Source of the DNA: an uncultured archaeon
GTDB taxonomy: Archaea; Altiarchaeota; Altiarchaeia; IMC4; QMZM01
Assembly (NCBI GenBank): GCA_964549685.1
Contig: CAZJVE010000003.1
Location: 17,706-81,705, forward strand
Direction of reading: 5' to 3'
DNA: 64,000 bases
This document shows, one piece after another, positions 4,135 through 25,139 of the stretch. Below the pieces are notes generated by a model, which saw only the letters and a program-made list of their open reading frames with translations, was not told the DNA's origin and searched no databases. Each line of letters begins with the position of its first letter. Positions within the stretch are counted from its first letter, which is position 1. The position numbers and the translations under genes are program-made.

Positions 4135-4193
4135 AGTCCTACCTCTTGGTTTAAGGATAGTTGATATTCTTGTTTAAATAGTATATACATAAA

Positions 4194-4213
4194 ATTATGC
4201 ACGTGCGCATAAT
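4194..4213. promoter_or_regulatory. Operator-like perfect palindrome ATTATGC-N6-GCATAAT in the divergent FAH / nadA-iscS-iscU promoter region
   Basis: Flanked on both sides by TATA-like boxes: ATTATTTATATG toward nadA after 9 nt, and TTTATGTATATA toward the FAH gene. Confidence 0.65.
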
Positions 4214-4259
4214 CATAACAATATTATTTATATGTCTCGGATGCACTATGGATAACGGG

Positions 4260-5168
4260 ATGGCTCAATCAGACATTGTGGGAAGGATCCAGAATTTGAA
4301 GAAGGATAGAAATGCGATTATCCTTGCCCATAACTATCAGCCCGGCGAGGTGCAGGACGTTGCGGATTATCTGGGGGATTCCCTGGAGCTCAGCAGGATT
4401 GCTGCAAAGAGCGAAGCCGAGGTTATTGTATTCTGTGGAGTGCATTTCATGGCTGAGACTGCTTCCATTCTATCGCCGGACAAAAAGGTTCTGTTGCCTG
4501 ACATAGACGCCAGATGCCCGATGGCCGACATGATTACCGCTGACGGCCTGAGGGAACTGAAGGCAAAACATCCCGACGCAAAGGTAGTCGGCTATGTCAA
4601 TACTACTGCAGATGTAAAGGCGGAGATGGATATCTGCTGTACATCAACCAATGCTATCAAGGTCATAAATTCTCTGGAGGGAGATGAGGTTATCTTCGTC
4701 CCAGACAAGTATCTGGCAGACTATGTCTCCAAGCACACTGACAAGAAGATTATACCATGGAACGGTTCCTGTCCAACCCATGTGAAGATAACGCCTGAAG
4801 ACATAGAGAAACAGAGGGGGCTTCATCCGGAGGCAAAGGTGATTGTGCACCCGGAATGTACGCCCGCAGTAATAGAGGTTGCTGATGAGGCCTTGTCAAC
4901 CGGCGGAATGTGTAAGTATGTGCGAGAGTCGAATGCCAGGGAATTCATCATCGGTACGGAGACCGGAATCATCCACAGACTCAAGAAGGAGAATCCGGAT
5001 AAGGAATTCTATCCTGCCTCGGAGCTGGCTGTCTGTCCGAACATGAAGAAGATAAACCTCGAGAAGGTGCTCTGGGCGCTTGAGGATATGAAACACGAGG
5101 TCAAGGTGCCTGAGGAAATCAGAATGAAGGCAAAACAAGCAGTCGACAGAATGCTTGAGATTGCATAG
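4260..5168 (+). CDS. nadA: Quinolinate synthase NadA
   Basis: 'AIILAHNYQPGEVQDVADYLGDSLELSR', 'FCGVHFMAETA', 'CPMA', 'CCTSTNA', 'HPEC'. The track start at 4197 lies inside an operator palindrome and adds a non-conserved hydrophobic leader. ATG 4260 (or 4248) sits about 25 nt downstream of a TTTATATG TATA box, which would make the transcript leaderless. Confidence 0.9.
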   Translation: MAQSDIVGRIQNLKKDRNAIILAHNYQPGEVQDVADYLGDSLELSRIAAKSEAEVIVFCGVHFMAETASILSPDKKVLLPDIDARCPMADMITADGLRELKAKHPDAKVVGYVNTTADVKAEMDICCTSTNAIKVINSLEGDEVIFVPDKYLADYVSKHTDKKIIPWNGSCPTHVKITPEDIEKQRGLHPEAKVIVHPECTPAVIEVADEALSTGGMCKYVRESNAREFIIGTETGIIHRLKKENPDKEFYPASELAVCPNMKKINLEKVLWALEDMKHEVKVPEEIRMKAKQAVDRMLEIA

Positions 5169-5169
5169 A

Positions 5170-6324
5170 ATGAAAAGAATCTATCTGGACCATGCGGCAA
5201 CCACTCCGGTGGACCCGGAGGTCAGGAAGGCGATGGAGCCCTTTCTTTCCGATAACTTCGGTAATGCCTCGTCACTGCACTCCTTTGGAAGGGAGACGAA
5301 GCAGGCGCTGGAGGAGAGCAGGGGGAAGATAGCTGAGAGGCTGGGCGCCAGCCCTGATGAGATAGTCTTCACCTCCAGAGGGACCGAATCCAATAACCTC
5401 GCGCTGAAGGGAGTCGCGTTCGCGAACAGGAAGAAGGGAAAGCACATTATAACATCAAAGATTGAGCACGACTGCGTCCTGAATTCCTGCAAGTGGCTGG
5501 AGAACGAGGGGTTCGAGGTGGAGTATCTGGATGTGGACAGGGAGGGATTTATTGACATGAGAAAGCTAGGGGATTCCATCAGAGACGATACGATTCTTGT
5601 CTCGATTATTCATGGAAATAATGAGATTGGAACAATTCAGAATCTCAAGGAAATAGGGAAAATCTGCTCGGAAAAGGACGTCTATTTCCATACCGATGCC
5701 TGTCAGAGCTTCACAAAGGTTCCACTGGACGTCGGGAAACATAATCTCGACCTTGTCACGATAAATTCCCACAAGATTTACGGGCCAAAGGGGGTAGGAG
5801 CTCTGTTTGTCAGAAAGGGCACGAGAATCATCCCGTGGCAGCACGGCGGCGGCCATGAATTCAACAAGCGCAGCGGGACGGAAAATATTCCCGCCATAGT
5901 TGGATTTGCGAAGGCGACTGATGTTACGGGGGAGAAGGAGATTCAGCACATGACCGGGTTGAGGGATAGGCTGATTGCTGAAATCCCTGGAGAATTCCCT
6001 GACTCCTGGCTGAACGGCCCCAAGGAGAATAGATTGTGCAACAATGCAAACTTCTCATTCAAGCATATTGAAGGCGAGTCCATAGTCCTACGAATGGACC
6101 AGAAGGGTATTGCGGTATCGACGGGTTCGGCCTGCTCATCCCACTCATTGGAGCCCAGTCACGTCATGATTGCAATAGGTCTCAAGCCGGAAGAAGCTCA
6201 TGGAAGCGTCAGGATTACTGTGGGTAAGGAGAATACAATGGAGGAAATAGAGTTTGCGATAGAATCTCTCAGGGAGGTGACTGACGGGCTCAGGAAGATG
6301 AGCCCATTCGTGAAAAATGTATAG
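5170..6324 (+). CDS. iscS: Cysteine desulfurase (NifS/IscS class)
   Basis: 'IYLDHAATTPVDPEV', 'SIIHGNNEIGTIQ', 'NSHKIYGPKG' (PLP Lys), 'STGSACSS' (active-site Cys loop). ATG at 5170, 2 nt after the nadA stop. The track start at 5155 is TTG. Confidence 0.92.
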   Translation: MKRIYLDHAATTPVDPEVRKAMEPFLSDNFGNASSLHSFGRETKQALEESRGKIAERLGASPDEIVFTSRGTESNNLALKGVAFANRKKGKHIITSKIEHDCVLNSCKWLENEGFEVEYLDVDREGFIDMRKLGDSIRDDTILVSIIHGNNEIGTIQNLKEIGKICSEKDVYFHTDACQSFTKVPLDVGKHNLDLVTINSHKIYGPKGVGALFVRKGTRIIPWQHGGGHEFNKRSGTENIPAIVGFAKATDVTGEKEIQHMTGLRDRLIAEIPGEFPDSWLNGPKENRLCNNANFSFKHIEGESIVLRMDQKGIAVSTGSACSSHSLEPSHVMIAIGLKPEEAHGSVRITVGKENTMEEIEFAIESLREVTDGLRKMSPFVKNV

Positions 6325-6682
6325 CGACAAGGTCATAGACCACTTCAACAACCCCAGGAACATGGGCGAGATTCCGGACGCTGATGGGATTGGGAAGGTC
6401 GGAAACCCAGTCTGCGGAGATGTGATGTACATCTACATCAAGGTCAAGGACGACAGGATAACGGATATAAAGTTCAAGACCATGGGTTGCGCAGCAGCAA
6501 TAGCAACCAGCAGCATAATAACCGAACTTGCCAAGGGAAAGACACTGGACGAGGCGATGAAGATTACAAAAGAAAGCGTCTCCGATGCTCTGGAAGGCCT
6601 GCCTCCAATAAAGCAGCACTGCTCCAATCTTGCTGCTGACGGCCTTCATAAGGCGATTGAAAACTATATAGGGAAAAAATAA
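6317..6682 (+). CDS. iscU: Fe-S cluster scaffold IscU/NifU N-terminal type
   Basis: 'VIDHFNNPRNMG', 'GNPVCGD', 'FKTMGCAAAIATSS', 'HCSNLAADGLHKAI'. Three conserved Cys. Overlaps the desulfurase stop by 8 nt. Confidence 0.92.
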   Translation: MYSDKVIDHFNNPRNMGEIPDADGIGKVGNPVCGDVMYIYIKVKDDRITDIKFKTMGCAAAIATSSIITELAKGKTLDEAMKITKESVSDALEGLPPIKQHCSNLAADGLHKAIENYIGKK

Positions 6683-6710
6683 GGATTTATTAATCTGTTC
6701 CTATAGAATT

Positions 6711-6732
6711 CTATAATGATTTTTCATTATAG
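6711..6732 (+). terminator. AT-rich hairpin with T5 tract downstream of iscU (possible terminator)
   Basis: CTATAATGA-TTTT-TCATTATAG is a perfect 9-bp inverted repeat. A T5 run spans the loop. Located 29 nt after the iscU stop. Archaeal terminators are oligo-T based, so this call is tentative. Confidence 0.35.
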
Positions 6733-6738
6733 ACCCGT

Positions 6739-6788
6739 TAGATAGAGAATGTATGTAGATGGATTAATAGATAGAGAATGTATGTAGA
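6739..6788 (+). repeat. Perfect 21-nt tandem direct repeat TAGATAGAGAATGTATGTAGA (period 29)
   Basis: Copies at 6739-6759 and 6768-6788. The second copy contains the ATG at 6778 of the first gene of the downstream operon. The first copy has the same ATG followed by an early stop. Confidence 0.9.
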
Positions 6789-7170
6789 CTATATAAATCT
6801 TATTAACGGTAGCATACTGGTTGGCCTTATCCTCCTTGCAATGTATTTTGTAGTCATGAATATGCGCACCTTCCTTCTGCCGGAGCACGTGGGCCACGTG
6901 GTTGCTTTCGGTCCCGGTGGTGAGGCTGACAACGTTCTCGGAATCTACAAAGACTGCAACTCCTGCCAGATATCCGAGAATTCGGGCAGGCTTGCCTTCC
7001 CTATCAAGATAAAGCTGGACGATAAATCGGTAGTTGACGCGGAGATAAGTCCCTGCTCCCTCTGCATGGATAAGGTAAAGGTGGGGGACAAGGTGGGGGT
7101 AACAACGGTCGGTTCCAGGTGCATTGCACAGAAGCTTGGTAAATTCACAATCCACCATAAGTCAGACTAA
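6778..7170 (+). CDS. Small membrane-anchored Cys-rich protein (hypothetical), first gene of the 13-gene operon
   Basis: 130 aa. Hydrophobic N-terminal helix 'GSILVGLILLAMYFVVMNM', two CxxC pairs (CNSC, CSLC). No family recognised. Start uncertain because of the tandem repeat. Confidence 0.5.
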   Translation: MYVDYINLINGSILVGLILLAMYFVVMNMRTFLLPEHVGHVVAFGPGGEADNVLGIYKDCNSCQISENSGRLAFPIKIKLDDKSVVDAEISPCSLCMDKVKVGDKVGVTTVGSRCIAQKLGKFTIHHKSD

Positions 7171-7171
7171 A

Positions 7172-8536
7172 ATGATGCTCTTGGGCTTGGATGTGTTGGG
7201 TCTCATCGGACTGGTGATGTTTTTTGGAGTCCTGATAGCCTCTCTTAAGGGATGGATTCCACAGGACGTACTGCCCGTGCAGTCGGCACTTGTTCTGACC
7301 GCCCTTGTGCTGGTTATTGTCGCTTTCCTCTTCGGTAAGCCAATAGGGATTAAGGATTTGATGGCGAATATCTTCCTCCATCCGATTACAGCATTAATCG
7401 GCGGTTTTCTTGTTGCGGGGGCACTGGAGGCGTCCGGGGCCTTCAAGGCTGCCATTAATCTCCTGGAGAAACTGGCGAAAACGCCGCTCGGTTTAACAGG
7501 GACTGTTGTTGTCCTGGTGAATATGCCCACAATCTTTGCGATGCCCTGTGGGAGAATTCTCGCTGCTGCATTAATGCCGGCGGCAATTCTGTTCGGCTTC
7601 ACCCTCGCAAAGGTCAAAAAGGATACGCTTCTCGCGAGCATAGTTGTCTTTGGCTTTATTGTCAATGCTGCTGCCTCCTGTGGACCCTCGCCGCTTGGAG
7701 GCATCGGGATGATTGGCGAGGGGATGGGCGGCTACCCACTTGGTTCTTTCATAAATGCTCAGCAGATAGGCATTATGTTGATAACGGCAGTTGCAATGAT
7801 ATCTGTAAGATTTGTCTATAAGATTCTTCCCAATGAGTCCATAACAGCAAAGCTCCTTGCGGAGGAGTCCGGAGAGGATGAGGGAGAGGAGAAGAATAAG
7901 GGAGAAAAGAAGGTGGAGATTCCGAAGTCCGGTTATTTTTCATTTTTCTTCTTCATGGTCGGGATTGCCATCGTGTTTATAGCAAGGCCACCGATTCCGA
8001 TACAGACAATCCTCATGTTCTTCGTGCTGGTTATAATGTTAGCCAGCAGGGTATCGATAAAGGACCTGATAGGTGGGGTGATACTGCACCCGATAATGGC
8101 CATGATATCCGGCTTTATAATTGCAGGGGCTCTTGTGGCCATCGGCAGCTTCGATGTCCTGATTCAGATTCTTATGGTCATAGCGGAAACTCCGCTTGGC
8201 TTTATAGGTGTTGTTGTCATCCTTGCGAATATCCCGACAATCCTGCCCATGCCCTGTGGAAGGATAATAGCCATGGCGTTGATGCCCGGCATACTTATGT
8301 TTGGTCTGAGGGTCAGTGAGATAACAGGGAATGTATGGATAGTTCCGCTGGTGCTGGTGGGGTTCATAATTAATGCTGCTGCCTCCTGCGGCCCTTCGCC
8401 GCTTGGAGGCATCGGCGGAATTGGCGAGGGCAACCTTGGAACGGCAATAGGAATCTCAGGACGGCCGCAGCAGGTCGGGATAATGATAGGGACAGGGACA
8501 GCGGTGCTGATAATAGGCATGGTGGGGTTTATCTAA
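7172..8536 (+). CDS. Polytopic membrane transporter with internal two-fold duplication and conserved Cys motifs (family not recognised)
   Basis: Both halves carry 'LHPI(T/M)A(L/M)I(G/S)GF', 'ETPLG / KTPLG', 'MPCGRI(L/I)A(A/M)ALMP' and 'INAAASCGPSPLGGIG'. An acidic linker 'EESGEDEGEEKNKGEKK' joins them. ATG-ATG at 7172, 1 nt after the previous stop. The track start at 7124 is TTG. Confidence 0.75.
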   Translation: MMLLGLDVLGLIGLVMFFGVLIASLKGWIPQDVLPVQSALVLTALVLVIVAFLFGKPIGIKDLMANIFLHPITALIGGFLVAGALEASGAFKAAINLLEKLAKTPLGLTGTVVVLVNMPTIFAMPCGRILAAALMPAAILFGFTLAKVKKDTLLASIVVFGFIVNAAASCGPSPLGGIGMIGEGMGGYPLGSFINAQQIGIMLITAVAMISVRFVYKILPNESITAKLLAEESGEDEGEEKNKGEKKVEIPKSGYFSFFFFMVGIAIVFIARPPIPIQTILMFFVLVIMLASRVSIKDLIGGVILHPIMAMISGFIIAGALVAIGSFDVLIQILMVIAETPLGFIGVVVILANIPTILPMPCGRIIAMALMPGILMFGLRVSEITGNVWIVPLVLVGFIINAAASCGPSPLGGIGGIGEGNLGTAIGISGRPQQVGIMIGTGTAVLIIGMVGFI

Positions 8537-8539
8537 AAA

Positions 8540-8683
8540 ATGGCATTTGAACTATTCACGATATCGATAGGGGTAGGGATCTTATCTGGAGCCATAATAA
8601 ACATCTCCCTGGGATACAAATTTTACGACAAGGGTGGTCTGCTGGGAGGCCTTGCAGTGGGCCTTATGATGGCGGTACTCTAG
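8540..8683 (+). CDS. Mini membrane protein, 47 aa (below the ORF-track cutoff)
   Basis: Hand translation: MAFELFTISIGVGILSGAIINISLGYKFYDKGGLLGGLAVGLMMAVL. Two hydrophobic, glycine-zipper-like helices. 3 nt after the transporter stop. Paralogous to the next ORF. Confidence 0.6.
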   Translation: MAFELFTISIGVGILSGAIINISLGYKFYDKGGLLGGLAVGLMMAVL

Positions 8684-8684
8684 A

Positions 8685-8840
8685 ATGGACAGTACAGAAT
8701 TAAAAGGACTCGGCCTGATGGTAGGGGCAGGAATACTGACAGGGATTATGTTCAATATAGGTATTATGAAGGACCCGTTTAACATGGGGGGAATCCTTGG
8801 TGGCTTTGTCACAGGGATTCTGATGTACATATTTTCATAA
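8685..8840 (+). CDS. Mini membrane protein, 51 aa, paralog of 8540..8683
   Basis: Hand translation: MDSTELKGLGLMVGAGILTGIMFNIGIMKDPFNMGGILGGFVTGILMYIFS. Shares the pattern G.GIL.G...NI...GG(L/I)LGG..(V/T)G..M with the preceding ORF. 1-nt and 2-nt gaps to its neighbours. Confidence 0.6.
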   Translation: MDSTELKGLGLMVGAGILTGIMFNIGIMKDPFNMGGILGGFVTGILMYIFS

Positions 8841-8842
8841 AA

Positions 8843-9322
8843 ATGGAAAAGAGACTAAGGCAATTCAACGTGGGGATGTTCATGATAGCGGCATTGATCC
8901 TGGGGGCTCTGGTCTTTACGGGCTTCATGTCGGGGCATCCATGGGCCCTGACCTGCTACCAGTGCAAGGCATGTAACCTCAAGTGCCCCTTGGGCTATGA
9001 CGTTTCACTTTTTGTGGCGGCATCGGCAACGAACAATCCCAATCTTTATATGAGCGCAACGAATCTCCAGCTCACAGTGGAAGAGGCCTATGAAACCGAC
9101 AGGAATATGCTGGTGGAGGTTGAGGGGAAAAAGATGACGGCTGAGGAGGCCCATGGAGAATTCAAACCGGACATGGTGGTCTGGGCAAGGAAGCTCAGGG
9201 TTAAGGACGCTGCGAAATTCGACCCGATAGACGGGTACTGCGACAGCCTGTGTCCAATAGGCCTGCCGGTAACCAATGCGATAAGAGACCTCAAATCGGA
9301 CGGGGAATTCAACGGAAGATAA
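8843..9322 (+). CDS. Single-pass membrane-anchored ferredoxin-like protein (one complete CxxCxxCxxxCP motif plus a CxxxCP remnant)
   Basis: N-terminus 'KRLRQ' then helix 'FNVGMFMIAALILGALVFTGF'. Motifs 'CYQCKACNLKCP' and 'CDSLCP'. HdrC/SdhB-like spacing with a helical insert between the motifs. Confidence 0.65.
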   Translation: MEKRLRQFNVGMFMIAALILGALVFTGFMSGHPWALTCYQCKACNLKCPLGYDVSLFVAASATNNPNLYMSATNLQLTVEEAYETDRNMLVEVEGKKMTAEEAHGEFKPDMVVWARKLRVKDAAKFDPIDGYCDSLCPIGLPVTNAIRDLKSDGEFNGR

Positions 9323-9325
9323 AAA

Positions 9326-9931
9326 ATGGATAAGAAGAATCTCGTAATGTTTTTGGCGATAATGGGGGTCCTGGTGGCCCTCTCCTATGTAAACATGCTC
9401 GGCGAGGGGGCTGAGTTAGTGAGAAAGGGAAAGCCGATAATCAGGGAGGCCTTCTCAGATGCCGATTATAAGATGGAAATAACCGACGGGAAGCTGTTAG
9501 TAAAATTTGCCTCATATGTTGCAAACGAGTACGAAGGCGAGTTCCTTGCAGTCTATGCCTATGACGCTGATGGAAACCACGTAATGAAGATGAAGAGGGT
9601 AGTCAATGGAAATATCGTCATAAACAAGGACGAGATTCCAAGCTTCGTGGCGAGCTTTGAAGGCAATGTGATAAAGGATATCGAAAAGGCCGAACAGTCG
9701 CTCAGGTTCCTGGAGATATTGCAGGATGCAAAAAGGGAGGGTAGAAACCTCGGGGTTGAGAGGTGCCTCATGGGCAAGAGATGCATAGCCATCTGTCCTG
9801 CAGCAGCAATAGAGGTGCTGATAAGGGATGATGAAAGCAACGGCAGAATCATCCCAGACATAGATTACGATAAATGCATCGAGGGCGGTTTATGTGCCAG
9901 CAGGTGTCCAACCGATTTGATAGTAACATAG
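9326..9931 (+). CDS. Single-pass membrane-anchored protein with C-terminal ferredoxin-like domain carrying two C-x5-C-x3-CP motifs
   Basis: Helix 'LVMFLAIMGVLVALSYV'. 'CLMGKRCIAICP' and 'CIEGGLCASRCP'. In both motifs the second Cys of the canonical CxxCxxCxxxCP is replaced by Gly. Confidence 0.65.
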   Translation: MDKKNLVMFLAIMGVLVALSYVNMLGEGAELVRKGKPIIREAFSDADYKMEITDGKLLVKFASYVANEYEGEFLAVYAYDADGNHVMKMKRVVNGNIVINKDEIPSFVASFEGNVIKDIEKAEQSLRFLEILQDAKREGRNLGVERCLMGKRCIAICPAAAIEVLIRDDESNGRIIPDIDYDKCIEGGLCASRCPTDLIVT

Positions 9932-9932
9932 G

Positions 9933-10286
9933 ATGACAAGGATAACAGAAGTAACAAGAACTGGGAAGAGGGGAAAGATTGCGGTATTCTTCCTTATAGC
10001 GGCAGTCCTGGGTCTTGGTCTCCTGCTGGTGGAAAAAGACGCCAGCAAATTCAATGCCCAGTGCCCGAGGGATTACTTCTGCGATAACAAATGCCCCGTG
10101 GATGCAATATCTCTCGACGAGCACGGGTTCCCCCAGATTGACAAGAGCGTATGCCTGTCATGGGTCCCCGAGAAAGATGAATTCGATTGGGATAAGTGCG
10201 GCCTGTGCCTGCAGGGGTGCCCTACAAGAGTCATAGATTTGCTGAACAGTGATTTTGAAGAAAGGGAAAAACACACGTTGAATTAA
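9933..10286 (+). CDS. Single-pass membrane-anchored ferredoxin-like protein with degenerate Cys motifs
   Basis: Basic N-terminus 'TRTGKRGK', helix 'IAVFFLIAAVLGLGLLLV'. 'CPRDYFCDNKCP' (central Asp replaces Cys) and 'CGLCLQGCP'. Confidence 0.6.
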   Translation: MTRITEVTRTGKRGKIAVFFLIAAVLGLGLLLVEKDASKFNAQCPRDYFCDNKCPVDAISLDEHGFPQIDKSVCLSWVPEKDEFDWDKCGLCLQGCPTRVIDLLNSDFEEREKHTLN

Positions 10287-10287
10287 G

Positions 10288-11112
10288 ATGGATGAAAAGG
10301 AGGAAAACCCAAAGAAGGAGAATAATGGGGTGAATCAGAAGAAGCTCAGGAAGGCTAGCCAGGTCCTGGTGTTGATTCTAGTCCTGGTCCTAACTTATTT
10401 GGTATACAGCGTGGCATTCTCTGTCTGCTGGCTGGACCCGATGTGGCACCTACAGGCATTGTTCGCTAACAGGTTTGATACAGGTACGGATACGTACTTC
10501 ATGGAGGGGCTGACGAGAATTTTTGTCCCTTCCGTCCTCATCCTTGGGGCCTTCGTATTCCTTGCAATACTTTTCGGTAGGATATTCTGCGGCTGGTTCT
10601 GTCCGTTTGGAACCATGCTCGATTACATAGAGGGGATAAGCCCGTTCAGAGGGAAGCTTCATTTCCCAAGAGAGCTTAAAGACCCGGGCATAAAGTATTC
10701 AATACTCATAGGTTTCCTAATCCTTTCCCTTATGACGTCGCAGGAGGCCTTCTGCGAATTCTGTCCTGCAGGCACCGTATTAAAGGGGCTTACGGGGCAT
10801 GTAATCTTCCTCTCGATTCCCGTCTTTATAGTGACCCTGTTTATCGTCCTCTTCTACGGAAGAAAGACGTGGTGCTCCTATCTCTGCCCCTTGGGGGCGT
10901 TCTTTGCACTCTTTACCAGATTCCACCTTTTCGGAATCAGAGCAAATAAGGAGGATTGCGTAAAATGCTTCATGTGCGACAAGGCATGCCCTATGGACGT
11001 CCTCGTAGTTGAGAAGTACATCCAAGAGGGTAAAAAAATAAACGACCCCGAATGCATCAAGTGCATGGATTGCGTTGATGCGTGCCCAAGAAAGATACTA
11101 AAGTTTCCGTAA
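10288..11112 (+). CDS. NapH/MauN/NosR-like integral membrane polyferredoxin
   Basis: Membrane-embedded 'CGWFCPFG' and 'WCSYLCPLG' (CxxxCP) motifs. C-terminal canonical 2x[4Fe-4S] motifs 'CVKCFMCDKACP' and 'CIKCMDCVDACP'. Confidence 0.8.
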   Translation: MDEKEENPKKENNGVNQKKLRKASQVLVLILVLVLTYLVYSVAFSVCWLDPMWHLQALFANRFDTGTDTYFMEGLTRIFVPSVLILGAFVFLAILFGRIFCGWFCPFGTMLDYIEGISPFRGKLHFPRELKDPGIKYSILIGFLILSLMTSQEAFCEFCPAGTVLKGLTGHVIFLSIPVFIVTLFIVLFYGRKTWCSYLCPLGAFFALFTRFHLFGIRANKEDCVKCFMCDKACPMDVLVVEKYIQEGKKINDPECIKCMDCVDACPRKILKFP

Positions 11113-11113
11113 A

Positions 11114-11902
11114 ATGGTAGCATACCAGTTCATAACATCGGGAATAGCATCCATGTTGATACTGACTCCGTTAGCCATGATACTGTACATGGTTCTCAGG
11201 GACAAGGGGGCTGCCGTCCTCTGCATGGAGTGTCAGCAGTGCAGGGCCGTGTGTCCCGTAATTCGGGCCCATGACAGTTATGCAGGGCCGAAGGACATAA
11301 TGGTTGCCGTAAAATCCGGTAAATACGACCTGGCCCTGCAGGGAAACGCCGAATTATGCGCCTCCTGCGCCGCATGCACGGAGCGTTGTCCGAGAAAGCT
11401 GGGAGCAGACGAGGAAACAACAGGTATAGTATCAGCAGAAATGGAGGACATATTCGGCAGGGATACGATAAAATACATGGAGGGAATCCCCAACCCAAAG
11501 ATGCAGCGAACCTATGAGGCGGTTATCAGAAGATTTGAGGGTAAGAAAACGGGCCTTCCATGGGACTGGGTAACCAAGAGTACACGGCTCAGGAAATTTT
11601 ATAATCCAATAGAGGACAAGCCGATGAAGGCCCAGATTAAGACACAGATTCCCGAGGCCGGGATGTCCCTTCTCACAGCAAAAGCAAATCTTTTCGGGGA
11701 AACTCCCCCCGAGCCGAAAGAGAGAGAAACTCCATCCGAAAGAGAGGCCGGGTTCGCAAAGCCGGATGGGGAGAAAACGTGTGAGATGGAAACGGAGAAG
11801 TCAAAACCTGCTGAACCCGTGGTGAAAGAAAAACCTGGTGAAGGGGAAGCAAAACCTGAGGAAAAATCTGAATCCAAAGAACAAAATGGCGGAGAAGTTT
11901 GA
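11114..11902 (+). CDS. HdrC-like 2x[4Fe-4S] subunit with N-terminal TM anchor and long E/K/P-rich C-terminal tail
   Basis: Helix 'ITSGIASMLILTPLAMILYMVL'. 'CMECQQCRAVCP' ... 'CASCAACTERCP' with a helical spacer, as in HdrC and SdhB C-terminal domains. Last ~90 aa are low complexity: 'PPEPKERETPSEREAG...KPGEGEAKPEEKSESKEQ'. Confidence 0.7.
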   Translation: MVAYQFITSGIASMLILTPLAMILYMVLRDKGAAVLCMECQQCRAVCPVIRAHDSYAGPKDIMVAVKSGKYDLALQGNAELCASCAACTERCPRKLGADEETTGIVSAEMEDIFGRDTIKYMEGIPNPKMQRTYEAVIRRFEGKKTGLPWDWVTKSTRLRKFYNPIEDKPMKAQIKTQIPEAGMSLLTAKANLFGETPPEPKERETPSEREAGFAKPDGEKTCEMETEKSKPAEPVVKEKPGEGEAKPEEKSESKEQNGGEV

Positions 11903-12659
11903 GATACCGGAACGGCTGATATTTTTCGAGGGATGCACGACCTCAAGGCTATTGAAGGAGATGAGACTCGCAACCTATGTAATCCTGGAGAGGGCAGTCG
12001 AGAAGGGAATCATAAAGGAGTACACGGTTCTCCCGAATGAGAGGTGCTGCGGTTATGCCTCGATGGTGATGGGGGACTTCAAGAACCAGAATAAATGCCT
12101 TATCTTCAACCTGGACCAGATGACACGGCTCGGGATAAAGGATGTGTTCTTTACATGCGGGGCATGCACTCACTTCATGGGCGACTCTCCCGAATTCAGG
12201 GCACGGGGTTTCAGGCCGATAAACATCATGGAGTTCCTGTATGCATTGATAAAGAACGGGCAGTTTGACAAGCTGATAGATAGGAAGCTCCCGAAAGGCT
12301 TCAAGATTACAGGCCATTATTCATGTCATCTGAGAAGGCTCTCAGGATTGAAGATGGATGAACTTTATAAGGAGATTGCAAACGCCCTGGGGGCAGAGTA
12401 TGTTGAGATGCCCGATGCAACGGATTGTTGCGGGGCCGGCTCGGAGGGTAAGGTGGCAATAGAGATTGCAAAGAGGAAGGTTGAGAGCGCTGACAAAACC
12501 GATGCAGATATATGCCCACTGGCCTGTGCGGGCTGCGAAGCAATTCTAAGCATAGTCTCGAAGCAGAGTAAGAGCAAAACGAAATTTACCTCGCTGTCGA
12601 CTGTAATCGCGAGTTGTATGACAGACCTTGATAAAAGGATTGAAAAACTAAATAAATAG
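11886..12659 (+). CDS. HdrB-like protein with two CCG cysteine-rich domains
   Basis: 'FFEGCTTS...ERCCGYAS...FTCGACTHF' and 'HYSCHLRR...DCCGAGSE...CPLACAGCE' match the C..CCG..CxxC pattern twice, as in the canonical HdrB at 18410..19249. ATG at 11886 (MAEKFEIP) overlaps the previous gene by 17 nt. Confidence 0.8.
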   Translation: MAEKFEIPERLIFFEGCTTSRLLKEMRLATYVILERAVEKGIIKEYTVLPNERCCGYASMVMGDFKNQNKCLIFNLDQMTRLGIKDVFFTCGACTHFMGDSPEFRARGFRPINIMEFLYALIKNGQFDKLIDRKLPKGFKITGHYSCHLRRLSGLKMDELYKEIANALGAEYVEMPDATDCCGAGSEGKVAIEIAKRKVESADKTDADICPLACAGCEAILSIVSKQSKSKTKFTSLSTVIASCMTDLDKRIEKLNK

Positions 12660-12683
12660 GCTATGATGTAAATTCATACCAAA

Positions 12684-13526
12684 GTGAAAGCTATAGAATA
12701 CCTAGTAAAGCTGATGAAAAGTCAGGAGGGCGAGTGGAAGGTAGAGGAGTTGATGACGAAGGAGGTCATAACCATAGAGCCGGAAGCCACCGTCCATGAT
12801 GCCGTTGAGAAGATGAGGAAGTATGGAATCCATGGTATCATAGTTGCAAAAGATGATGATATGCTAGGTATTGTCAGCTATTATGACATTCTTCTCCTGA
12901 TGGCAGGTAGGGAGCATGGGAAAAATGTCAGGGTGGAGGAGATAATGAATACTGACCTGATAACGGTTGATTCTGAAGAGGACATAATGGACTGCCTTGA
13001 GTTAATGCTGAAGAATCACGTCCTGAGATTGCCTGTTTTGGATAGTGGCAAATTAGTGGGGATTATAACAACTACGGATTTTGTAAACGTATTCGACAAG
13101 GGCTTTGATGGTGAGGGGTCTTTCCATGCCAAAAAAAGTCCTGAATTGGTGGCTGAGAACATAATGCATAAGCCAGTTGTAATGATAGAGCCCAACAAGA
13201 GTGTTTTTGAGGCGGCAAAGCTTATGACTGATAAGAACATCGGCTCTCTGGTTATAAACGACAACTGTAAGATTGGAATTGTTACGGAGAGTGACATCTT
13301 TAAGAGGGTCGTTGCCAAGGGCAAGGACAGCAGGAAGACAAAGGTGGGTGATGTTATGACCACCCCTTGCAAGACGGTGGGTCCAGATGCCGATATAATC
13401 GAGGCCAGCAGGATATTCCACGACAACGACATAAGGAGGCTGCCTGTTGTTGAAGACTGCAAGGTTATCGGTATAATGGCAGTCGAGGACATCATAGATA
13501 CCATATCCCTGAGGAGAAGGTTCTAA
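12684..13526 (+). CDS. CBS-domain protein (four tandem CBS motifs)
   Basis: Repeated 'LMTKEVITIEP...', 'IMNTDLITVD...', 'IMHKPVVMIEP...', 'VMTTPCKTVGP...' units with 'RLPV(L/V)' ends. The start at 12684 is GTG. An alternative ATG at 12714 is possible. Confidence 0.85.
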   Translation: MKAIEYLVKLMKSQEGEWKVEELMTKEVITIEPEATVHDAVEKMRKYGIHGIIVAKDDDMLGIVSYYDILLLMAGREHGKNVRVEEIMNTDLITVDSEEDIMDCLELMLKNHVLRLPVLDSGKLVGIITTTDFVNVFDKGFDGEGSFHAKKSPELVAENIMHKPVVMIEPNKSVFEAAKLMTDKNIGSLVINDNCKIGIVTESDIFKRVVAKGKDSRKTKVGDVMTTPCKTVGPDADIIEASRIFHDNDIRRLPVVEDCKVIGIMAVEDIIDTISLRRRF

Positions 13527-13528
13527 AT

Positions 13529-14272
13529 ATGCTCGAGACACTGTTTGAATTTCTGGGGTATGTAACCGAGAATGCCACGTCTTCCGTAACCTGGAGCTTC
13601 GTTGCAGGCTTCCTCTTCGGCCTGACATGCATCCAGTGCGTTCTTCCGATAGCGATTTACGGGGCCAAGGAGAAAAGCGGTAGAAAGGCCCTTCTCTTCG
13701 GGATTCTCTTCAATCTGCCCAGGATGCTCGTCTTTGTAGTTCTGGCAATTCTTGCGGCTGTCTCGATAGGAACAATCCAGAGTCTGGAGTCGACTTCCCC
13801 TACGCTCTTTGCTGCCACATGGGTAGTAACCGGTCTTGTCCTCATCATATTCGCCGCGGAGCTCTTTGGTTTATTCAATATCGACAGGGTTATCGGTGAT
13901 AAGCTGGTTAATATGATGATGCCCCTGTTCAGGCAGAACTTCGAGTCCCACTCCCTCGGAGCGATTATTAGAGGGACTATGTTCAGCATCGCATGCGCCC
14001 TGGAATCCTCGCTGATACTTCTGGGCATATGGGGAATGGCCGTCCTCTCAACAGACAGTCTCTTTGCATTTCTTGCAGTTATGGCCTTTGGTCTGGGGAA
14101 TATAACGTCCACGAGCCTTGCTGCTGCCTTCATGGGCTCGTCCACAAACCTCCTAGAGAACACGACAAAAATTAAAGTAAGAAAGTACGCGGCCTATACA
14201 GGGAGCATAATAATCCTCTATCTCGGGCTGCAGTATCTGATTCTCGGCTCCCTTAGGCTTGGGATTCTGTAG
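13529..14272 (+). CDS. CcdA/DsbD-like six-TM thiol:disulfide electron-transfer membrane protein (putative)
   Basis: About six hydrophobic segments. Cys in TM1 ('LTCIQCVLPIAIYG') and in TM4 ('MFSIACALESS'), the arrangement known from the CcdA/DsbD transmembrane domain. Family assignment made by eye only. Confidence 0.5.
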   Translation: MLETLFEFLGYVTENATSSVTWSFVAGFLFGLTCIQCVLPIAIYGAKEKSGRKALLFGILFNLPRMLVFVVLAILAAVSIGTIQSLESTSPTLFAATWVVTGLVLIIFAAELFGLFNIDRVIGDKLVNMMMPLFRQNFESHSLGAIIRGTMFSIACALESSLILLGIWGMAVLSTDSLFAFLAVMAFGLGNITSTSLAAAFMGSSTNLLENTTKIKVRKYAAYTGSIIILYLGLQYLILGSLRLGIL

Positions 14273-14302
14273 ATTGGTAAAAAAATAAGAAGAAAAAATA
14301 AT

Positions 14303-14479
14303 TTATTCTTCAGCCTCGTCAGGAACGACTAATGAGAGATTAACTCCCTTTATCTCGCCGCTTACAAACCTTGCAAGGGTCTGTATCGAGCCGGTATAGA
14401 ACATATCACCAACCCTGACGGTAAAGCCGTTGCCGGACTTTGTCTGGTTAATCCAGACATCTGACTTTTCTAAAGACAT
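14303..14479 (-). CDS. Small hypothetical protein, 58 aa (below the ORF-track cutoff)
   Basis: Hand translation: MSLEKSDVWINQTKSGNGFTVRVGDMFYTGSIQTLARFVSGEIKGVNLSLVVPDEAEE. Strong SD GAGGTGG 5 nt upstream of the ATG. No family recognised. Confidence 0.5.
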   Translation of the reverse strand: MSLEKSDVWINQTKSGNGFTVRVGDMFYTGSIQTLARFVSGEIKGVNLSLVVPDEAEE

Positions 14480-14581
14480 ATTACCACCTCATTATCTAAT
14501 GGGTGTGGCCCTTATTATACAAATTCTGCGTTTATTTCGTATATTTAATGATTTTAATGCTGATTTCCAAGTATAGGTAGT

Positions 14582-15313
14582 ATGGAAATCAGGGTACTGG
14601 AGTATAAGGGCGGGAAGCTGAGTGATGGAGAGCGCAGCGTTTCAGAGGAGAAACTGTTCCATATCCTTGTCAACGAAAAGCACCTCCTTTCCCTGTTCGC
14701 GCTTCCCAATAACCTAGAGGAGATGGTGACCGGTTTTCTTGTCTCAGAGGGAGTTACTGGCTATGAGAATGTCAAGGGGATAAGGAGGGCGAACTGCGAG
14801 CTGTGGGTAAAGACAAGGGAGGATATTCCTGAGTTGAAACCGGAGCTGAGAAGCTCGGGCTGCAGCGGAATTGCGATGTATAAGGCTCCAGAGCCGGTGG
14901 AATCAAAACAGGAATTTAATAGCAAGGTGATTGTGAATTCCCTGGAATATTTCAAAAAAGCTAAGGAGTGGAAAATCACTGGAGGTACTCACTTCGCGGC
15001 CTTAATCTCGGCGGATGGAAGATTTCTGCAGGGTTTTGAGGATGTGGGCAGGCACAATGCCCTGGACAAGGTCATAGGATGGGCCCTCATGAACAATCAT
15101 GGTCTGGCCGACAAATTCGTCCTCTTTACTGGAAGGCTCTCGACAGGGATGGTGATGAAGGCTGCGAGAGCGGGAATACCGCTGCTTGTCTCGAATACCG
15201 CCGTGCTGTATCAAGCCATTCATCTTGCTGAGGAACTGAATATCACGCTGGTTGGATTCGCAAGGGGAGAGGAGTTCAATGTCTACAGCAACCTGTGGAG
15301 AATCGGGAAATAA
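14582..15313 (+). CDS. fdhD: FdhD-type sulfurtransferase for Mo/W-bis-PGD enzymes
   Basis: 'GGTHFAALI', 'EDVGRHNALDKVIGW', 'SGRLSTGMVMKAARAGIPLLVS', 'ITLVGFARG' are hallmark FdhD motifs. Convergent with fwdB, with 1 nt between the stops. Confidence 0.9.
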   Translation: MEIRVLEYKGGKLSDGERSVSEEKLFHILVNEKHLLSLFALPNNLEEMVTGFLVSEGVTGYENVKGIRRANCELWVKTREDIPELKPELRSSGCSGIAMYKAPEPVESKQEFNSKVIVNSLEYFKKAKEWKITGGTHFAALISADGRFLQGFEDVGRHNALDKVIGWALMNNHGLADKFVLFTGRLSTGMVMKAARAGIPLLVSNTAVLYQAIHLAEELNITLVGFARGEEFNVYSNLWRIGK

Positions 15314-15314
15314 T

Positions 15315-16598
15315 TCAGCTCTCTATCTTCTTTATCTCTGCCAGGACCTGCTTCAGGGTGTCCACCGTGGACTTCGTCTCCTTTAACGGCGACTTGGCAA
15401 ACTTTCTGACGCGTATCGGTACGTTGTCCATTCTGTAAAAGGTTCCCTCGCACTCCATCGCGTTCAGGACATCCGGGATGACAACGTTGCTGAGCATGGT
15501 CGTGGGGCAGTGAGCAACCTCAACCGAGATTAGAGGTATGTCTGCGAGATGCTCTATGGCTTCTCTGGGAAGATGGGCCCCCAAATCGGCCCCTACCACA
15601 AGGACCGCATCTACTTCGCCCCTCGCAAGCAGATCAACTGTTGTCGTTTCGCCGGGGTTGAAGCGGGGAATTCTCCTCGAATAGTCCACTCCGAAGGGAT
15701 AGCCCGAGGTCCAGGTCATAATCTGATTGAAACCTGCAACGTTGCTGTGGCCCCTGTTTGCCAGAAGGATGAACCGTGAATAATTGTTTACGTTCTTCAC
15801 GAGGCGCATCGCCTTCTCCAGGTTCCTATACTTTCCAACGGAGCTTGCTATTCCAAGGCCCACGAAAATGACACCGTACTTGCAGGACTTCATCATCTCC
15901 GCGAGCTTCCTGACGGTTTTGGGTGGAACTCCCCCGACTGCCTTGTCTATGTCATGGCCGTTGATTACTGCACCTATGGCTGACATCAGCTCGAAGTCCT
16001 TGTTCGGCTCTATCTGTATGTGAAGGTCGGCAAGTTCCGCGGTTGGGGTCTTTCTTGGGTCCACCACTATGATGGTCCTCTCCTGACCACCGTGCTCCCT
16101 GAAGTAGCCCCGGGGGAACAATGAATAGCGGGATAACAGACGGGGATGCGATTCAATGGGGTTGCAGCCCCAGTATATCAGTAAATCGGCCCTGTTCTTG
16201 ACCTCTCCGAGGGTTGCTGATGGGAGCCCGGCCTCCTGGATGCCGAGGACTGTCGGGCCGTGGCACATTGTCGAATTTCCATCCACCACTCCACCGAGGT
16301 ATTCTGCCATTTCGATTCCGACTCTCATGGATTCCGTAGAAATCTCGCTGCCCATGAAGATTAGCGGCCTCTTTGCCTTGCCGAGAATTTCAGCAGTCTT
16401 TTTGATTGCATCCTTCCAGCCGGCTTTCTTTCCGTCTATTGTTGGAGTCAGGACTCTGTCCTTGTCCCTGAGCTTGTGGTACTTGGCCTCGCCCATGCTG
16501 CATGCATTGTAGACCTTGATATCATCTCTTGTGAGTTCTATGTCTATGTCGTCGCATGCAAGCCCACAGACCGAGCAGGTTATGTCCTTATGCAGCAT
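15315..16598 (-). CDS. fwdB: Formylmethanofuran dehydrogenase subunit B (Mo/W-bis-PGD subunit)
   Basis: 427 aa. N-terminal 'ITCSVCGLACDDIDIE' cluster motif, molybdopterin oxidoreductase-like core. Co-operonic with fwdA, fwdC and fwdD. Confidence 0.88.
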   Translation of the reverse strand: MLHKDITCSVCGLACDDIDIELTRDDIKVYNACSMGEAKYHKLRDKDRVLTPTIDGKKAGWKDAIKKTAEILGKAKRPLIFMGSEISTESMRVGIEMAEYLGGVVDGNSTMCHGPTVLGIQEAGLPSATLGEVKNRADLLIYWGCNPIESHPRLLSRYSLFPRGYFREHGGQERTIIVVDPRKTPTAELADLHIQIEPNKDFELMSAIGAVINGHDIDKAVGGVPPKTVRKLAEMMKSCKYGVIFVGLGIASSVGKYRNLEKAMRLVKNVNNYSRFILLANRGHSNVAGFNQIMTWTSGYPFGVDYSRRIPRFNPGETTTVDLLARGEVDAVLVVGADLGAHLPREAIEHLADIPLISVEVAHCPTTMLSNVVIPDVLNAMECEGTFYRMDNVPIRVRKFAKSPLKETKSTVDTLKQVLAEIKKIES

Positions 16599-17100
16599 TC
16601 AGTTCACCCATGATTTTCTCAGCGAGCTGGTCTCTGTTCTCCTGGTTGATGATGAATTTCCTGAATTCTACGCCGGGGAATTTACTAGTGAATTCCTCAA
16701 GCATTTTCTTTCTGATTACGATGATTACGTCCTTCTCTGTTGCTATTGCCCTCTCGGCTTCTGGAGAGAGGCCGTCCCCTTTCCTTTCGAGAGGGCCTAT
16801 CTCGTCGATGAAGACGAGGTCGGAGCCGTTTTCTATTGAGCAGTGAATTGCTTTTCTGCTAAGGGAAATTCCTTTTTTAGTTATAATATAATTTCCAACC
16901 GGAATCCCCTCTGCCTTTGAGTCCGTTGTTGCCATCTCCTCCTTTTCTCCCGTGGAGAGGTCAATGGCAGTGCTGCCCTCTCCAGCCCCAGGGCAGAGCA
17001 CGCCGCCGCATTTCCTGCCGTTCTCTTCTGCAATCTCTACTATCCTTTCGCAGAGGGTTGTCTTCCCGACTCCCGAAATTCCCGATATGAGTATTTTCAT
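16588..17100 (-). CDS. P-loop NTPase, THEP1/NTPase_1-like
   Basis: Walker A 'GISGVGKTT', Walker B-like 'LVFIDEIGPLE'. 170 aa. Overlaps the fwdB start by 11 nt. Confidence 0.7.
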   Translation of the reverse strand: MKILISGISGVGKTTLCERIVEIAEENGRKCGGVLCPGAGEGSTAIDLSTGEKEEMATTDSKAEGIPVGNYIITKKGISLSRKAIHCSIENGSDLVFIDEIGPLERKGDGLSPEAERAIATEKDVIIVIRKKMLEEFTSKFPGVEFRKFIINQENRDQLAEKIMGELNAA

Positions 17101-17756: not shown

Positions 17757-17757
17757 T

Positions 17758-25040: not shown

Positions 25041-25139
25041 GTTTTTGGCATGATTTTTCCATATAGATAGCAGAACCCAGGTTAAAATATAGGGTTAGAT
25101 GCTTTATTTGAATAAGCATATCCGGAAAAAAACAAGGAC

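Follow-up and report, generated by a model that had tools for sequence, protein, structure and literature searches.

The locus described here occupies positions 6778-14272 on the plus strand of a 64,000-nucleotide stretch of contig CAZJVE010000003.1 from an uncultured archaeon of the Altiarchaeota; this whole stretch of analysed DNA is referred to below as the window. The list of open reading frames (ORFs) holds twelve consecutive same-strand ORFs in this interval, which we named g1 to g12, one fewer than the thirteen genes claimed by an earlier interpretation made from the letters alone (the sequence-only reading), whose own gene list totals twelve items. Its description of the layout agrees with the ORF coordinates, as all twelve lie on one strand and are separated by 1-3 nucleotides (nt) or overlap, the sole exception being a gap of 24 nt ahead of g11, the gene of the CBS-domain protein. 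The stop codon of g1 overlaps the ATG start codon of g2, and g9 and g10 overlap by 17 nt. Because the twelve genes share a strand, are spaced by at most 24 nt or overlap, and keep their order in relatives, we treat them as one unit.

The membrane protein encoded by g2 (7169-8536, +; 455 amino acids, aa) had been described as an internally duplicated transporter with Cys motifs, which is what we found: its two halves are 46% identical (E=9e-45), and the motifs MPCGR and ASCGPSPLGG occur twice each. Four cysteines are invariant in an alignment of archaeal and bacterial homologues, of which MPCGR contributes C127 and C363, and ASCGPSPLGG C171 and C407. When the AlphaFold2 (AF2) model of g2 (pLDDT 84.7, pTM 0.85) was compared with the PDB by Foldseek, it matched VcINDY, NaCT, NaS1, Pho90 and the TRAP transporter SiaQM with E-values down to 8e-7 and TM-scores of 0.6-0.67 (VcINDY 5uld: E=8e-7, TM-score 0.62), and every one of the 29 PDB matches with E ≤1e-3 is a DASS or TRAP protein. 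The model displays the elevator fold with its two repeats, each made of a re-entrant hairpin and a broken helix, and places MPCGR in the loop joining the hairpin helices and ASCGPSPLGG in the break of the discontinuous helix. These four elements, two hairpin tips and two helix breaks, form the substrate site of DASS proteins, as in VcINDY. As the four cysteines of g2 are located on these elements, C127, C171, C363 and C407 probably converge in the modelled structure.

At the sequence level the g2 family is small, sharply bounded and isolated. Pfam returned CitMHS alone, at E=0.079 and 12.5 bits against a threshold of 31.9, and the g2 profile gave no match among PDB sequences even at E=10; the SNT motifs that form the hairpin-tip signature of DASS proteins are missing from g2, and MPCGR stands in their place. 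A HMMER scan of 1.84 billion representative proteins with the g2 profile recovered just 67 representatives, with no spill-over into other transporter families. No Pfam model covers the family, and literature searches found no published description of it. Some archaeal members are of half size; P0140, P0141, P0144 and P0167 carry, fused to the N-terminus, Beta_helix/NosD-like or CARDB domains of the kind typically seen in cell-surface proteins, and P0141 has an additional C-terminal helix-turn-helix (HTH) domain.

Directly downstream, the two mini transmembrane (TM) proteins listed by the sequence-only reading, g3 (8540-8683, +; 47 aa) and g4 (8685-8840, +; 51 aa), proved to be paralogues with 38% identity (E=1e-7). 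A C-terminal extension of bacterial g2 proteins aligns with g3, the two having ...GYKxxKPGGxLGG... in common, and g4 is homologous to a 65-aa protein encoded upstream of g2 in Desulfobacula. The arrangement, with one mini-subunit per g2 half, is reminiscent of the Q subunit of TRAP transporters.

Conservation was assessed by a g2-profile scan with one genome per species, which gave 57 loci, all ORFs of which were searched with the window proteins. Synteny in other genomes, one of the tests that had been set beforehand, turned out to be strong across these loci. A g9-like gene adjoins g2 in 48 of the 57 loci and in 36 of the 38 that have at least 2.5 kb of flank on each side, g3 is conserved beside g2 in 45 of the 57, and the gene order is kept in eight other Altiarchaeota metagenome-assembled genomes (MAGs) with g2 identities of 66-75%. 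The conserved centre is not the HdrB/NapH/DsbD part: the real core consists of g2 and g9, usually together with g5, g6 and the mini proteins.

Around this core the gene content varies by lineage. The nine Altiarchaeota loci show the full order g1-g10, with or without g11, followed by g12; g5 is present in eight and g6 in all nine of them, and five of the nine clusters contain a DsbD_2 protein. In the 12 loci of Thermoplasmata/Methanomassiliicoccales the set comprises g5, two ferredoxins, g9, g10, g1, g2, mini proteins and g8. Eight loci from Halobacteriota, Hydrothermarchaeota and related archaea have the order g9-g10-g1-g2a-g2b-mini, with or without g8, g2 being split into halves, and the two loci from Undinarchaeota (DPANN) carry a similar set plus g5. 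In its minimal archaeal form the cluster consists of g9-g10-g1-g2a-g2b-mini only; at L049 no other redox-related gene lies on the same strand. Among bacteria, 17 loci from Desulfobacterota, Spirochaetota and Acidobacteriota contain a cluster associated with RdhA-like (reductive dehalogenase-like) proteins, from which g10 and g8 are absent. Nine further loci come from Planctomycetota, Coatesbacteria, Clostridia and unclassified bacteria; in eight of these a g9-like gene accompanies g2, and in three, from Coatesbacteria and an unclassified bacterium, a NapH-like gene lies nearby.

The RdhA-type clusters (L058, Desulfobacula toluolica Tol2, 3840-14150; L062; L063; and 14 further loci) start, often after the gene of a sigma-54 activator (present beside the Tol2 cluster), with genes for a SufT/DUF59-like protein anchored at its N-terminus, DsbD_2 and a four-TM protein, continue with two RdhA-like proteins, the first of about 640 and the second of about 460 aa, that have a small protein between them, then with a g4-like mini protein and a g1-like protein, and end with g2, g5, g6 and g9, often followed by a SurA-like chaperone. 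Both g5 and g6 occur in 16 of the 17 loci, as does DsbD_2, and the anchored SufT/DUF59-like protein is found in 14. A further protein of locus L062 matches Prenyltrans and DUF4430 weakly, and we take this architecture to be transcobalamin-like. The two RdhA-like proteins have three N-terminal TM helices each, lack a signal for twin-arginine translocation (Tat), are not accompanied by rdhB, and score 142 and 169 bits on TIGR02486 (cut-off 160). They correspond to the "hybrid" or "transmembrane" reductive dehalogenases of Atashgahi 2019 (PMC6797604); the portions of PMC6797604 and PMC12219181 consulted do not describe g2, g5, g6, g9, DsbD_2 or the SufT-like protein as their neighbours. Since g10 and g8 are absent from all 17 loci, a specifically thiol- or sulfur-directed function can apply at most to the archaeal versions. 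The sequence-only reading is borne out in part: of the proposed thiol or sulfur relay, the membrane redox system bearing CCG domains stands; the bacterial versions of RdhA type have dehalogenase-like proteins in place of g10 and g8.

The second core gene and the one that accompanies g2 most consistently, g9 (11114-11902, +; 262 aa), encodes the predicted membrane-anchored HdrC-like protein, with matches to Fer4_8 (E=1e-8) and Fer4_17 (E=2.2e-8), an N-terminal TM helix as anchor and a charged C-terminal tail. Its eight conserved cysteines, forming two [4Fe-4S] motifs of the type CX2CX2CX3CP, are kept in 52-58 of 58 homologues. On the HdrC equivalog TIGR03290 it reaches 27 bits against a cut-off of 160, and unlike soluble HdrC it possesses the N-terminal TM helix. 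The overlapping g10 (11886-12659, +; 257 aa) is HdrB-like with two complete CCG domains, as had been claimed (PF02754, E=4.7e-18 over two stretches). In HdrB, two CCG domains with the pattern CXnCCGXmCX2C supply ten cysteines, which bind two non-cubane [4Fe-4S] clusters. All ten are intact in g10, as another of the tests set beforehand demanded: C17, C54, C55, C91, C94, C147, C181, C182, C214 and C217 are invariant and align with those of the HdrB encoded elsewhere in the window. The top matches of g10 among PDB sequences are HdrB chains (E=3e-7); its scores on the HdrB equivalogs lie far under the cut-offs (TIGR03288, 32.9 bits against 345; NF041780, 20 against 450), and in NCBIfam it matches best to LdhH and TfrB, in each case to the C-terminal portion.

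The NapH-like assignment of g8 (10288-11112, +; 274 aa), a membrane polyferredoxin of the NapH/MauN family, rests on Fer4_5 (E=1.3e-20, two stretches) and TIGR02163 (E=1.6e-33), with both CX3CP motifs and two CX2CX2CX3CP motifs present. NapH is built of a four-TM Fer4_5 domain bearing two CX3CP motifs, followed by a pair of [4Fe-4S] motifs at the C-terminus, and this architecture is recognisable in g8: the translation shows CGWFCP, CSYLCP and the two CX2CX2CX3CP motifs, and the hydropathy scan three clear TM helices and a likely fourth. The NapH/MauN cut-offs are not reached (TIGR02163, 116 bits against 213; NF007013, 107 against 234). The four CBS domains of g11 (12684-13526, +; 280 aa) were likewise found (PF00571, E=3.8e-56, four stretches). 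As it occurs in three of the nine Altiarchaeota loci only, g11 is a variable accessory gene, whose product is probably a regulatory or ligand-sensing subunit. For g12 (13529-14272, +; 247 aa), described earlier as CcdA/DsbD-like, the picture is mixed. The protein itself has no direct match in Pfam or NCBIfam, and BLASTP against the Desulfobacula DsbD_2 protein was not significant, so that the connection is made through intermediate homologues: P0127-P0131, 46-52% identical to g12, carry PF13386 (DsbD_2). With its six hydrophobic segments, the invariant C34 and C37 (CIQC) in TM1 and the invariant C156 in TM4, g12 has the features of the superfamily. Its AF2 model is of low confidence (pLDDT 62), and CcdA 5vkv is the sole PDB match near a TM-score of 0.5 (0.49/0.53, E=0.44). 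We therefore regard g12 as plausibly a divergent DsbD_2/CcdA-like protein, a relationship shown only indirectly. Pfam and NCBIfam profile searches found no cytochrome, NrfD-like or molybdopterin domain in any of the twelve proteins, in agreement with the sequence-only reading.

Which side of the membrane the single-pass proteins face was estimated by the positive-inside rule, comparing the numbers of lysine and arginine residues on either side of the first TM helix in every homologue. The product of g1 (6778-7170, +; 130 aa) has one N-terminal TM helix followed by a Cys-rich domain (CxxC...CxxC) and no match in Pfam or NCBIfam; C60, C93 and C96 are present in 29 of 29 homologues and C63 in 24 of 29, and the gene adjoins g2 in archaea and in Desulfobacula. 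Its N-terminus is placed outside and its C-terminus inside in 25 of 27 homologues, so that the Cys domain would be cytoplasmic. The same argument puts the Cys domain of g9 in the cytoplasm, as 44 of 55 homologues have the N-terminus outside. The opposite orientation is predicted for g5 (8843-9322, +; 159 aa), a single-pass iron-sulfur protein with one CX2CX2CX3CP motif, a distal CX3CP and weak Fer4 matches, all six cysteines of which are kept in 35-36 of 36 homologues and which adjoins g2 in Altiarchaeota, Thermoplasmata, Undinarchaeota and bacteria: because its N-terminus lies inside in 31 of 36 homologues, its iron-sulfur domain is predicted to be outside. The first cluster motif begins about six residues past the anchor in g9 and about eight in g5. 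By these predictions the first clusters of g9 and g5 would sit on opposite surfaces of the membrane, with g2 between them.

The other two single-pass proteins are ferredoxins. The C-terminal domain of g6 (9326-9931, +; 201 aa) is a dicluster ferredoxin (Fer4_7, E=5.9e-8) with two CX5CX3CP motifs, its cysteines being kept in 28-30 of 30 homologues. The NapG-like g7 (9933-10286, +; 117 aa; Fer4_7, E=3.4e-6) has a strongly basic N-terminus, one CX5CX3CP and one C...CX2CX3CP motif; with the N-terminus inside in 8 of 11 homologues, its iron-sulfur domain, too, is predicted to lie outside. In SdhB/FrdB the [3Fe-4S] site follows the pattern CX5CX3CP, which for g6 and g7 is a lead only. Twin arginines were found in none of g5, g6 and g7 of the window, and the classical Tat route was rejected for them on this ground.

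Lineage variants of the cluster bear on its sidedness as well. In the Methanomassiliicoccales locus L060 two ferredoxin-like proteins carry classical Tat signals, both scoring above the TIGR01409 cut-off; the Thermoplasmata starts read MDRRRFLKHLG at the g6 position and SRRSFMKALG in the g7 homologue. BLASTP aligned only the N-termini of g6 and the Thermoplasmata Tat-ferredoxin in the same position, and their orthology is therefore positional. The g8 protein of L060 is fused to a GltD-like domain (Fer4_20 plus Pyr_redox_2), which implies a pyridine-nucleotide site in the cytoplasm, so that, given its Tat ferredoxins, redox proteins of this cluster lie on either side of the membrane. A g9-like protein is fused to FMN_bind in Planctomycetota (L043) and Coatesbacteria (L037), the order being FMN_bind-TM-Fer4_8, and FMN_bind domains are extracytosolic in characterised systems (PMC8238504). 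Taken together, the exported ferredoxins, the FMN_bind domains and the N-in orientation of g5 and g7 point to a general transfer of electrons or reductant across the membrane. The β-helix or CARDB domains at the N-terminus of some g2 halves likewise speak for an extracytoplasmic arm.

A possible cytoplasmic partner emerged from the Altiarchaeota loci. The gene gcvH, encoding the lipoyl-carrier H protein, lies immediately 5' of g1 in three of them (L003, L005/L061 and L007), and lplA, encoding lipoate-protein ligase, immediately 3' of g12 in L003 and L005. Further upstream in these Altiarchaeota (L061, Altiarchaeales Bin_400, 9215-17155; L003; L007) are genes for an HdrB-HdrC fusion and a split glutamate synthase. 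The window has its own gcvH (25140-25553, -; PF01597, E=3e-39), in which the lysine stands in the context ETGKW. It belongs to the string gcvH-fwdA-fwdC-hdrA2-polyferredoxin-hdrC-hdrB-fwdD-(219-aa ORF, 17097-17756)-NTPase-fwdB on the minus strand (15315-25553). The canonical hdrABC set reported earlier is contained in this string, with hdrB, hdrC and hdrA2 at 18410-22728. Formylmethanofuran dehydrogenase and HdrABC are thus co-encoded, with a lipoyl-carrier gene at the head of the string; no mcr gene was seen among the annotated window ORFs. GcvH may be a functionally linked thiol/disulfide carrier, which we regard as a lead only, and cycling of a lipoyl protein between the soluble HdrABC and the membrane complex is an attractive but unproven idea.

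Our preferred reading, held tentatively and at somewhat less than even confidence, is that the operon encodes a modular haem-free complex in which g2 spans the membrane and cytoplasmic redox chemistry is coupled to redox proteins outside. The products of g1-g12 would form one multi-subunit complex of the cytoplasmic membrane with many iron-sulfur clusters and no recognisable haem- or quinone-binding subunit. Its membrane core would be g2, with the four cysteines at substrate-site positions, and the mini proteins g3 and g4 in the manner of a TRAP Q subunit; g1, translationally coupled to g2, would contribute a Cys-rich domain on the cytoplasmic side. The cytoplasmic face would further comprise g9, g10 with two CCG sites for thiol/disulfide chemistry, g8, and g11 as a sensor, and the outer face g5, g7 and probably g6, with g12 as a second thiol relay of DsbD_2 type. 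Electrons would travel between a cluster of g9 at the inner surface and one of g5 at the outer surface by way of the Cys4 site of g2, where either an iron-sulfur cluster might be bound or a dithiol/disulfide might undergo redox changes. In archaea the couple on the cytoplasmic side could be a thiol/disulfide at g10, with lipoyl-GcvH as the Altiarchaeota candidate; in Thermoplasmata it could be NAD(P)H, acting by way of the GltD-like fusion. Outside, the partner would differ by lineage, being ferredoxin-like proteins, FMN (flavin mononucleotide) domains or dehalogenase-like reductases. A more specific version, which we consider unlikely as it stands, is a "redox elevator", in which the Cys4 cluster or dithiol, on the mobile domain of g2 or in mid-membrane, would shuttle electrons between g9 and g5. 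The partners of the core are all redox proteins and are swapped modularly by lineage, and we prefer the cross-membrane reading because it alone covers the minimal, ferredoxin, FMN and RdhA variants.

Several points weigh against this reading. To our knowledge the DASS fold occurs solely in solute transporters, and we know of no member with a redox cofactor. All topologies are predictions from the positive-inside rule, and the charge-based orientation of g6 is ambiguous; g5-g7 lack twin arginines, and if they are outside, the loading of their clusters is unexplained. The minimal archaeal clusters lack a gene for an outer-face redox partner, and an occurrence in Undinarchaeota, DPANN archaea with reduced genomes, fits housekeeping or uptake as well as respiration. 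It is possible, if doubtful, that g2 is an elevator transporter of a thiophilic solute (Fe2+, Cu+, Ni2+, Zn2+, sulfide, polysulfide or persulfide sulfur, or a low-molecular-weight thiol or disulfide) and that the iron-sulfur, CCG and NapH-like proteins reduce or oxidise this solute, much as CcoG of the NapH family reduces Cu2+ for a copper exporter. A redox-coupled transporter would accord with the DASS/IT fold (TM-score 0.6-0.67 to VcINDY, NaCT, NaS1 and TRAP), with four invariant cysteines at substrate-site positions, and with the fusion of NosD-like β-helix domains to some g2 halves, NosD acting in copper/sulfur trafficking. The minimal archaeal cluster, with cytoplasmic HdrBC-like proteins, g1 and g2, fits the reduction of an imported disulfide, the cluster is found in reduced DPANN genomes, and in the window the sulfur-trafficking genes iscSU and fdhD flank the operon. 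That neighbourhood, however, is not kept beyond one close relative (L001, below), profile searches revealed no substrate-binding protein or metallochaperone domain in the operon, and the RdhA-like, Tat-ferredoxin and FMN_bind partners of the same core would be left unexplained.

For the archaeal versions only, one may also think of a membrane-bound reductase of heterodisulfide type, analogous to HdrED or DsrMK, in which g10 and g9 act on a cytoplasmic disulfide carrier, possibly lipoyl-GcvH cycling with the soluble HdrABC-Fwd system, while the membrane part conserves energy or supplies electrons. We hold this to be decidedly unlikely. The CCG sites are complete, gcvH and lplA flank the operon in L003 and L005 (gcvH also in L007), the window gcvH heads the fwd-hdrABC string with its lipoyl-lysine context kept, and there is a precedent in the sulfur-oxidising Hdr-like complexes, which require a lipoate-binding GcvH-like protein (sHdr-LbpA). 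Yet adjacency to gcvH or lplA is confined to three or four Altiarchaeota loci, in one of which, L061, gcvH also follows the glutamate synthase genes; g10 is missing from all bacterial versions; and there is no haem b or NrfD-type subunit through which a quinone or phenazine pool might be reached. The proposal is compatible with the preferred reading, of which it would describe the cytoplasmic half. We give still less credence, judging it very unlikely, to a maturation of iron-sulfur proteins outside the cytoplasm, whereby g5, g6, g7 and the RdhA-like proteins would be inserted unfolded by Sec/YidC and receive their clusters on the outer side, g1 and g2 using the Cys4 site to export a cluster or the components of one, DsbD_2 exporting reducing power, the anchored SufT-like protein serving as carrier and g9, g10 and g8 supplying electrons. 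It would make sense of iron-sulfur domains predicted outside without Tat motifs in most lineages, of the anchored SufT/DUF59-like protein and DsbD_2 in 14 and 16, respectively, of the 17 RdhA-type clusters, of DsbD_2 in five of nine Altiarchaeota clusters, of the SurA-like chaperone often adjacent and of iscS-iscU upstream in the window. But iron-sulfur assembly outside the cytoplasm is without known precedent, Thermoplasmata retain g2, g1, g9 and g10 in spite of exporting their ferredoxins by Tat, neither the minimal archaeal form nor the FMN_bind variants include an iron-sulfur client outside, and the topologies on which it depends are only predicted.

The genomic context of the operon was examined as well. 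Profile searches of the window ORFs bore out the claim that nadA-iscS-iscU lies directly upstream, and fdhD follows downstream. The order nadA-iscS-iscU-g1..g12-fdhD recurs in L001, the MAG Candidatus Altiarchaeota KR13_N1.mb.66, whose g2 is 95% identical, and among the other loci compared the adjacency of iscSU and fdhD to the operon is found in this one only. Adjacency to iscSU is weak evidence, since it is seen only in a near-identical MAG, and a functional tie of the operon to iscS-iscU or to fdhD/fwd was rejected because the neighbourhood is confined to L001. Between iscU and g1 lies an AT-rich spacer of 95 nt, which makes a promoter of its own plausible for g1-g12. A perfect 21-nt direct repeat, TAGATAGAGAATGTATGTAGA, is present at 6739-6759 and 6768-6788 (spacing 29) and duplicates the start region of g1; its upstream copy begins a 12-codon upstream ORF, MYVDGLIDRECM*, in another frame, which ends within the first codons of g1. 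The repeat and the upstream ORF may be a leader or regulatory element, or a scar of duplication. The longest ORF of nadA (4197-5168, +) starts with a hydrophobic stretch of 20 residues, MHVRIIITILFICLGCTMDNG..., outside the NadA profile; the profile match begins at residue 30, and translation probably starts from a methionine within this ORF. On the other side of the operon, a lone ORF of 58 aa, MSLEKSDVWINQTKSGNGFTVRVGD..., lies at 14303-14479 (-) inside the 309-nt spacer between g12 and fdhD. Elsewhere in the window, the tRNA family Rfam RF00005 matches 112 nt at 39193-39304 (+) with 63 bits; ARAGORN gave no tRNA here, and the match is probably an archaeal tRNA with an intron.

Known routes of electrons across membranes rely on haems, on quinones, on flavins with NapH-like or Rnf/Nqr proteins, or on cysteine relays of DsbD type. 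If the preferred reading is true, a cysteine-lined transporter fold as the sole candidate for a membrane-spanning redox element would constitute a new principle. Five classes of transmembrane electron transfer have been distinguished, NapH-like, MsrQ-like, PepSY-like, DsbD and NQR/RNF-like (Méheust et al. 2021, PMC8238504); NapH-like and DsbD proteins already count there as modular machinery for carrying electrons through the membrane, which provides a precedent. A redox elevator, if real, would add a sixth, needing neither haem nor quinone nor flavin and common to Altiarchaeota, Thermoplasmata, DPANN and several bacterial phyla, and it would be the missing electron supply of the transmembrane reductive dehalogenases. 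According to PMC6797604 and PMC12219181, transmembrane RdhA proteins are widespread, with function and electron supply as open questions; that the same core is encoded beside their genes in bacteria bears on this supply. In subsurface habitats Altiarchaeota are abundant CO2-fixers whose electron donors and acceptors are, as far as we know, still unclear, and a phylum-wide complex with a possible lipoyl-GcvH link to HdrABC-Fwd is a concrete and testable candidate for their energy metabolism. Should one of the alternatives hold instead, the locus would still be the first of its kind, either as an elevator transporter that is based on cysteines and works with an Hdr-type reductase or as a case of iron-sulfur protein maturation outside the cytoplasm.

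How far the operon resembles known systems differs from part to part. With NapGH and other NapH-like proteins (NapH, NosH/NosR, PceC/RdhC, MauN, CcoG) g8 shares the Fer4_5 domain, the two CX3CP and the two [4Fe-4S] motifs, it pairs with a small NapG-like protein, g7, which is Tat-exported in Thermoplasmata, and its attachment to differing reductases is modular, as in that group. In contrast to NapGH, the operon contains no napA, napB or napC, no FMN_bind domain was found in the window, and there is no evidence of a quinone-pool connection. The defining core is not NapH, since g8 is absent from all 17 RdhA-type loci while g2 and g9 persist. HdrBC, HdrED, DsrMK, TmcB and HmcF resemble the g9-g10 pair in that the CCG domains of g10 align with genuine HdrB and g9 has the two-cluster domain of HdrC type; in HdrED and DsrMK, moreover, the module is likewise attached to the membrane. 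Here, however, HdrA and a haem-b subunit (HdrE/DsrM) are lacking, g9 brings its own TM anchor, and the membrane partner is a DASS-fold protein. Neither the haem-b nor the NrfD-type subunit that marks HdrED, DsrMKJOP, Hmc, Tmc and Qmo has a counterpart domain in the twelve proteins. Membership in Nap, HdrED, Dsr, Hmc, Tmc or Qmo was rejected, as the defining subunits are absent, and the sequence-only reading was right to see no match to HdrED, DsrMKJOP, QmoABC, Hmc/Tmc or Nap. The sHdr-LbpA system, in which hdrC1B1-hdrA-hyp-hdrC2B2 occurs with dsrE/tusA and the gene of a lipoate-binding protein, differs as well, because the operon lacks HdrA, DsrE and TusA; the sole link to it is gcvH/lplA in some Altiarchaeota.

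Two further comparisons concern the membrane proteins. DsbD/CcdA proteins (PF02683, PF13386) share with g12 the six TM helices and the cysteines in TM1 and TM4, and g2 follows the logic of DsbD in being internally repeated, each repeat having its own essential cysteines on re-entrant elements; the fold of g2, however, is the entirely different DASS elevator with two cysteines per repeat, and in place of a thioredoxin-like partner, of which none is encoded, the operon has iron-sulfur proteins. The DASS/IT transporters (VcINDY, NaCT, NaS1, Pho90; TRAP DctM/SiaQM) agree with g2 in the overall fold, the two repeats and the small accessory TM subunits, but show no relationship to it at the sequence level, and g2 is always encoded with iron-sulfur proteins. 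RdhA-like genes of the transmembrane reductive dehalogenase type accompany the core in bacterial relatives, while the window operon has none. That the system is undescribed, as the sequence-only reading suspected, agrees with our literature searches, which found no characterised complex and no description of the g2 neighbourhood. The core (g2, g9, g5, the mini proteins and g1) belongs to no described family, and its function is one that we infer entirely. Set beside known systems, g2 falls outside the five classes of PMC8238504, and the still unnamed system to which it belongs is widespread and conserved across two domains of life, bacteria and archaea.

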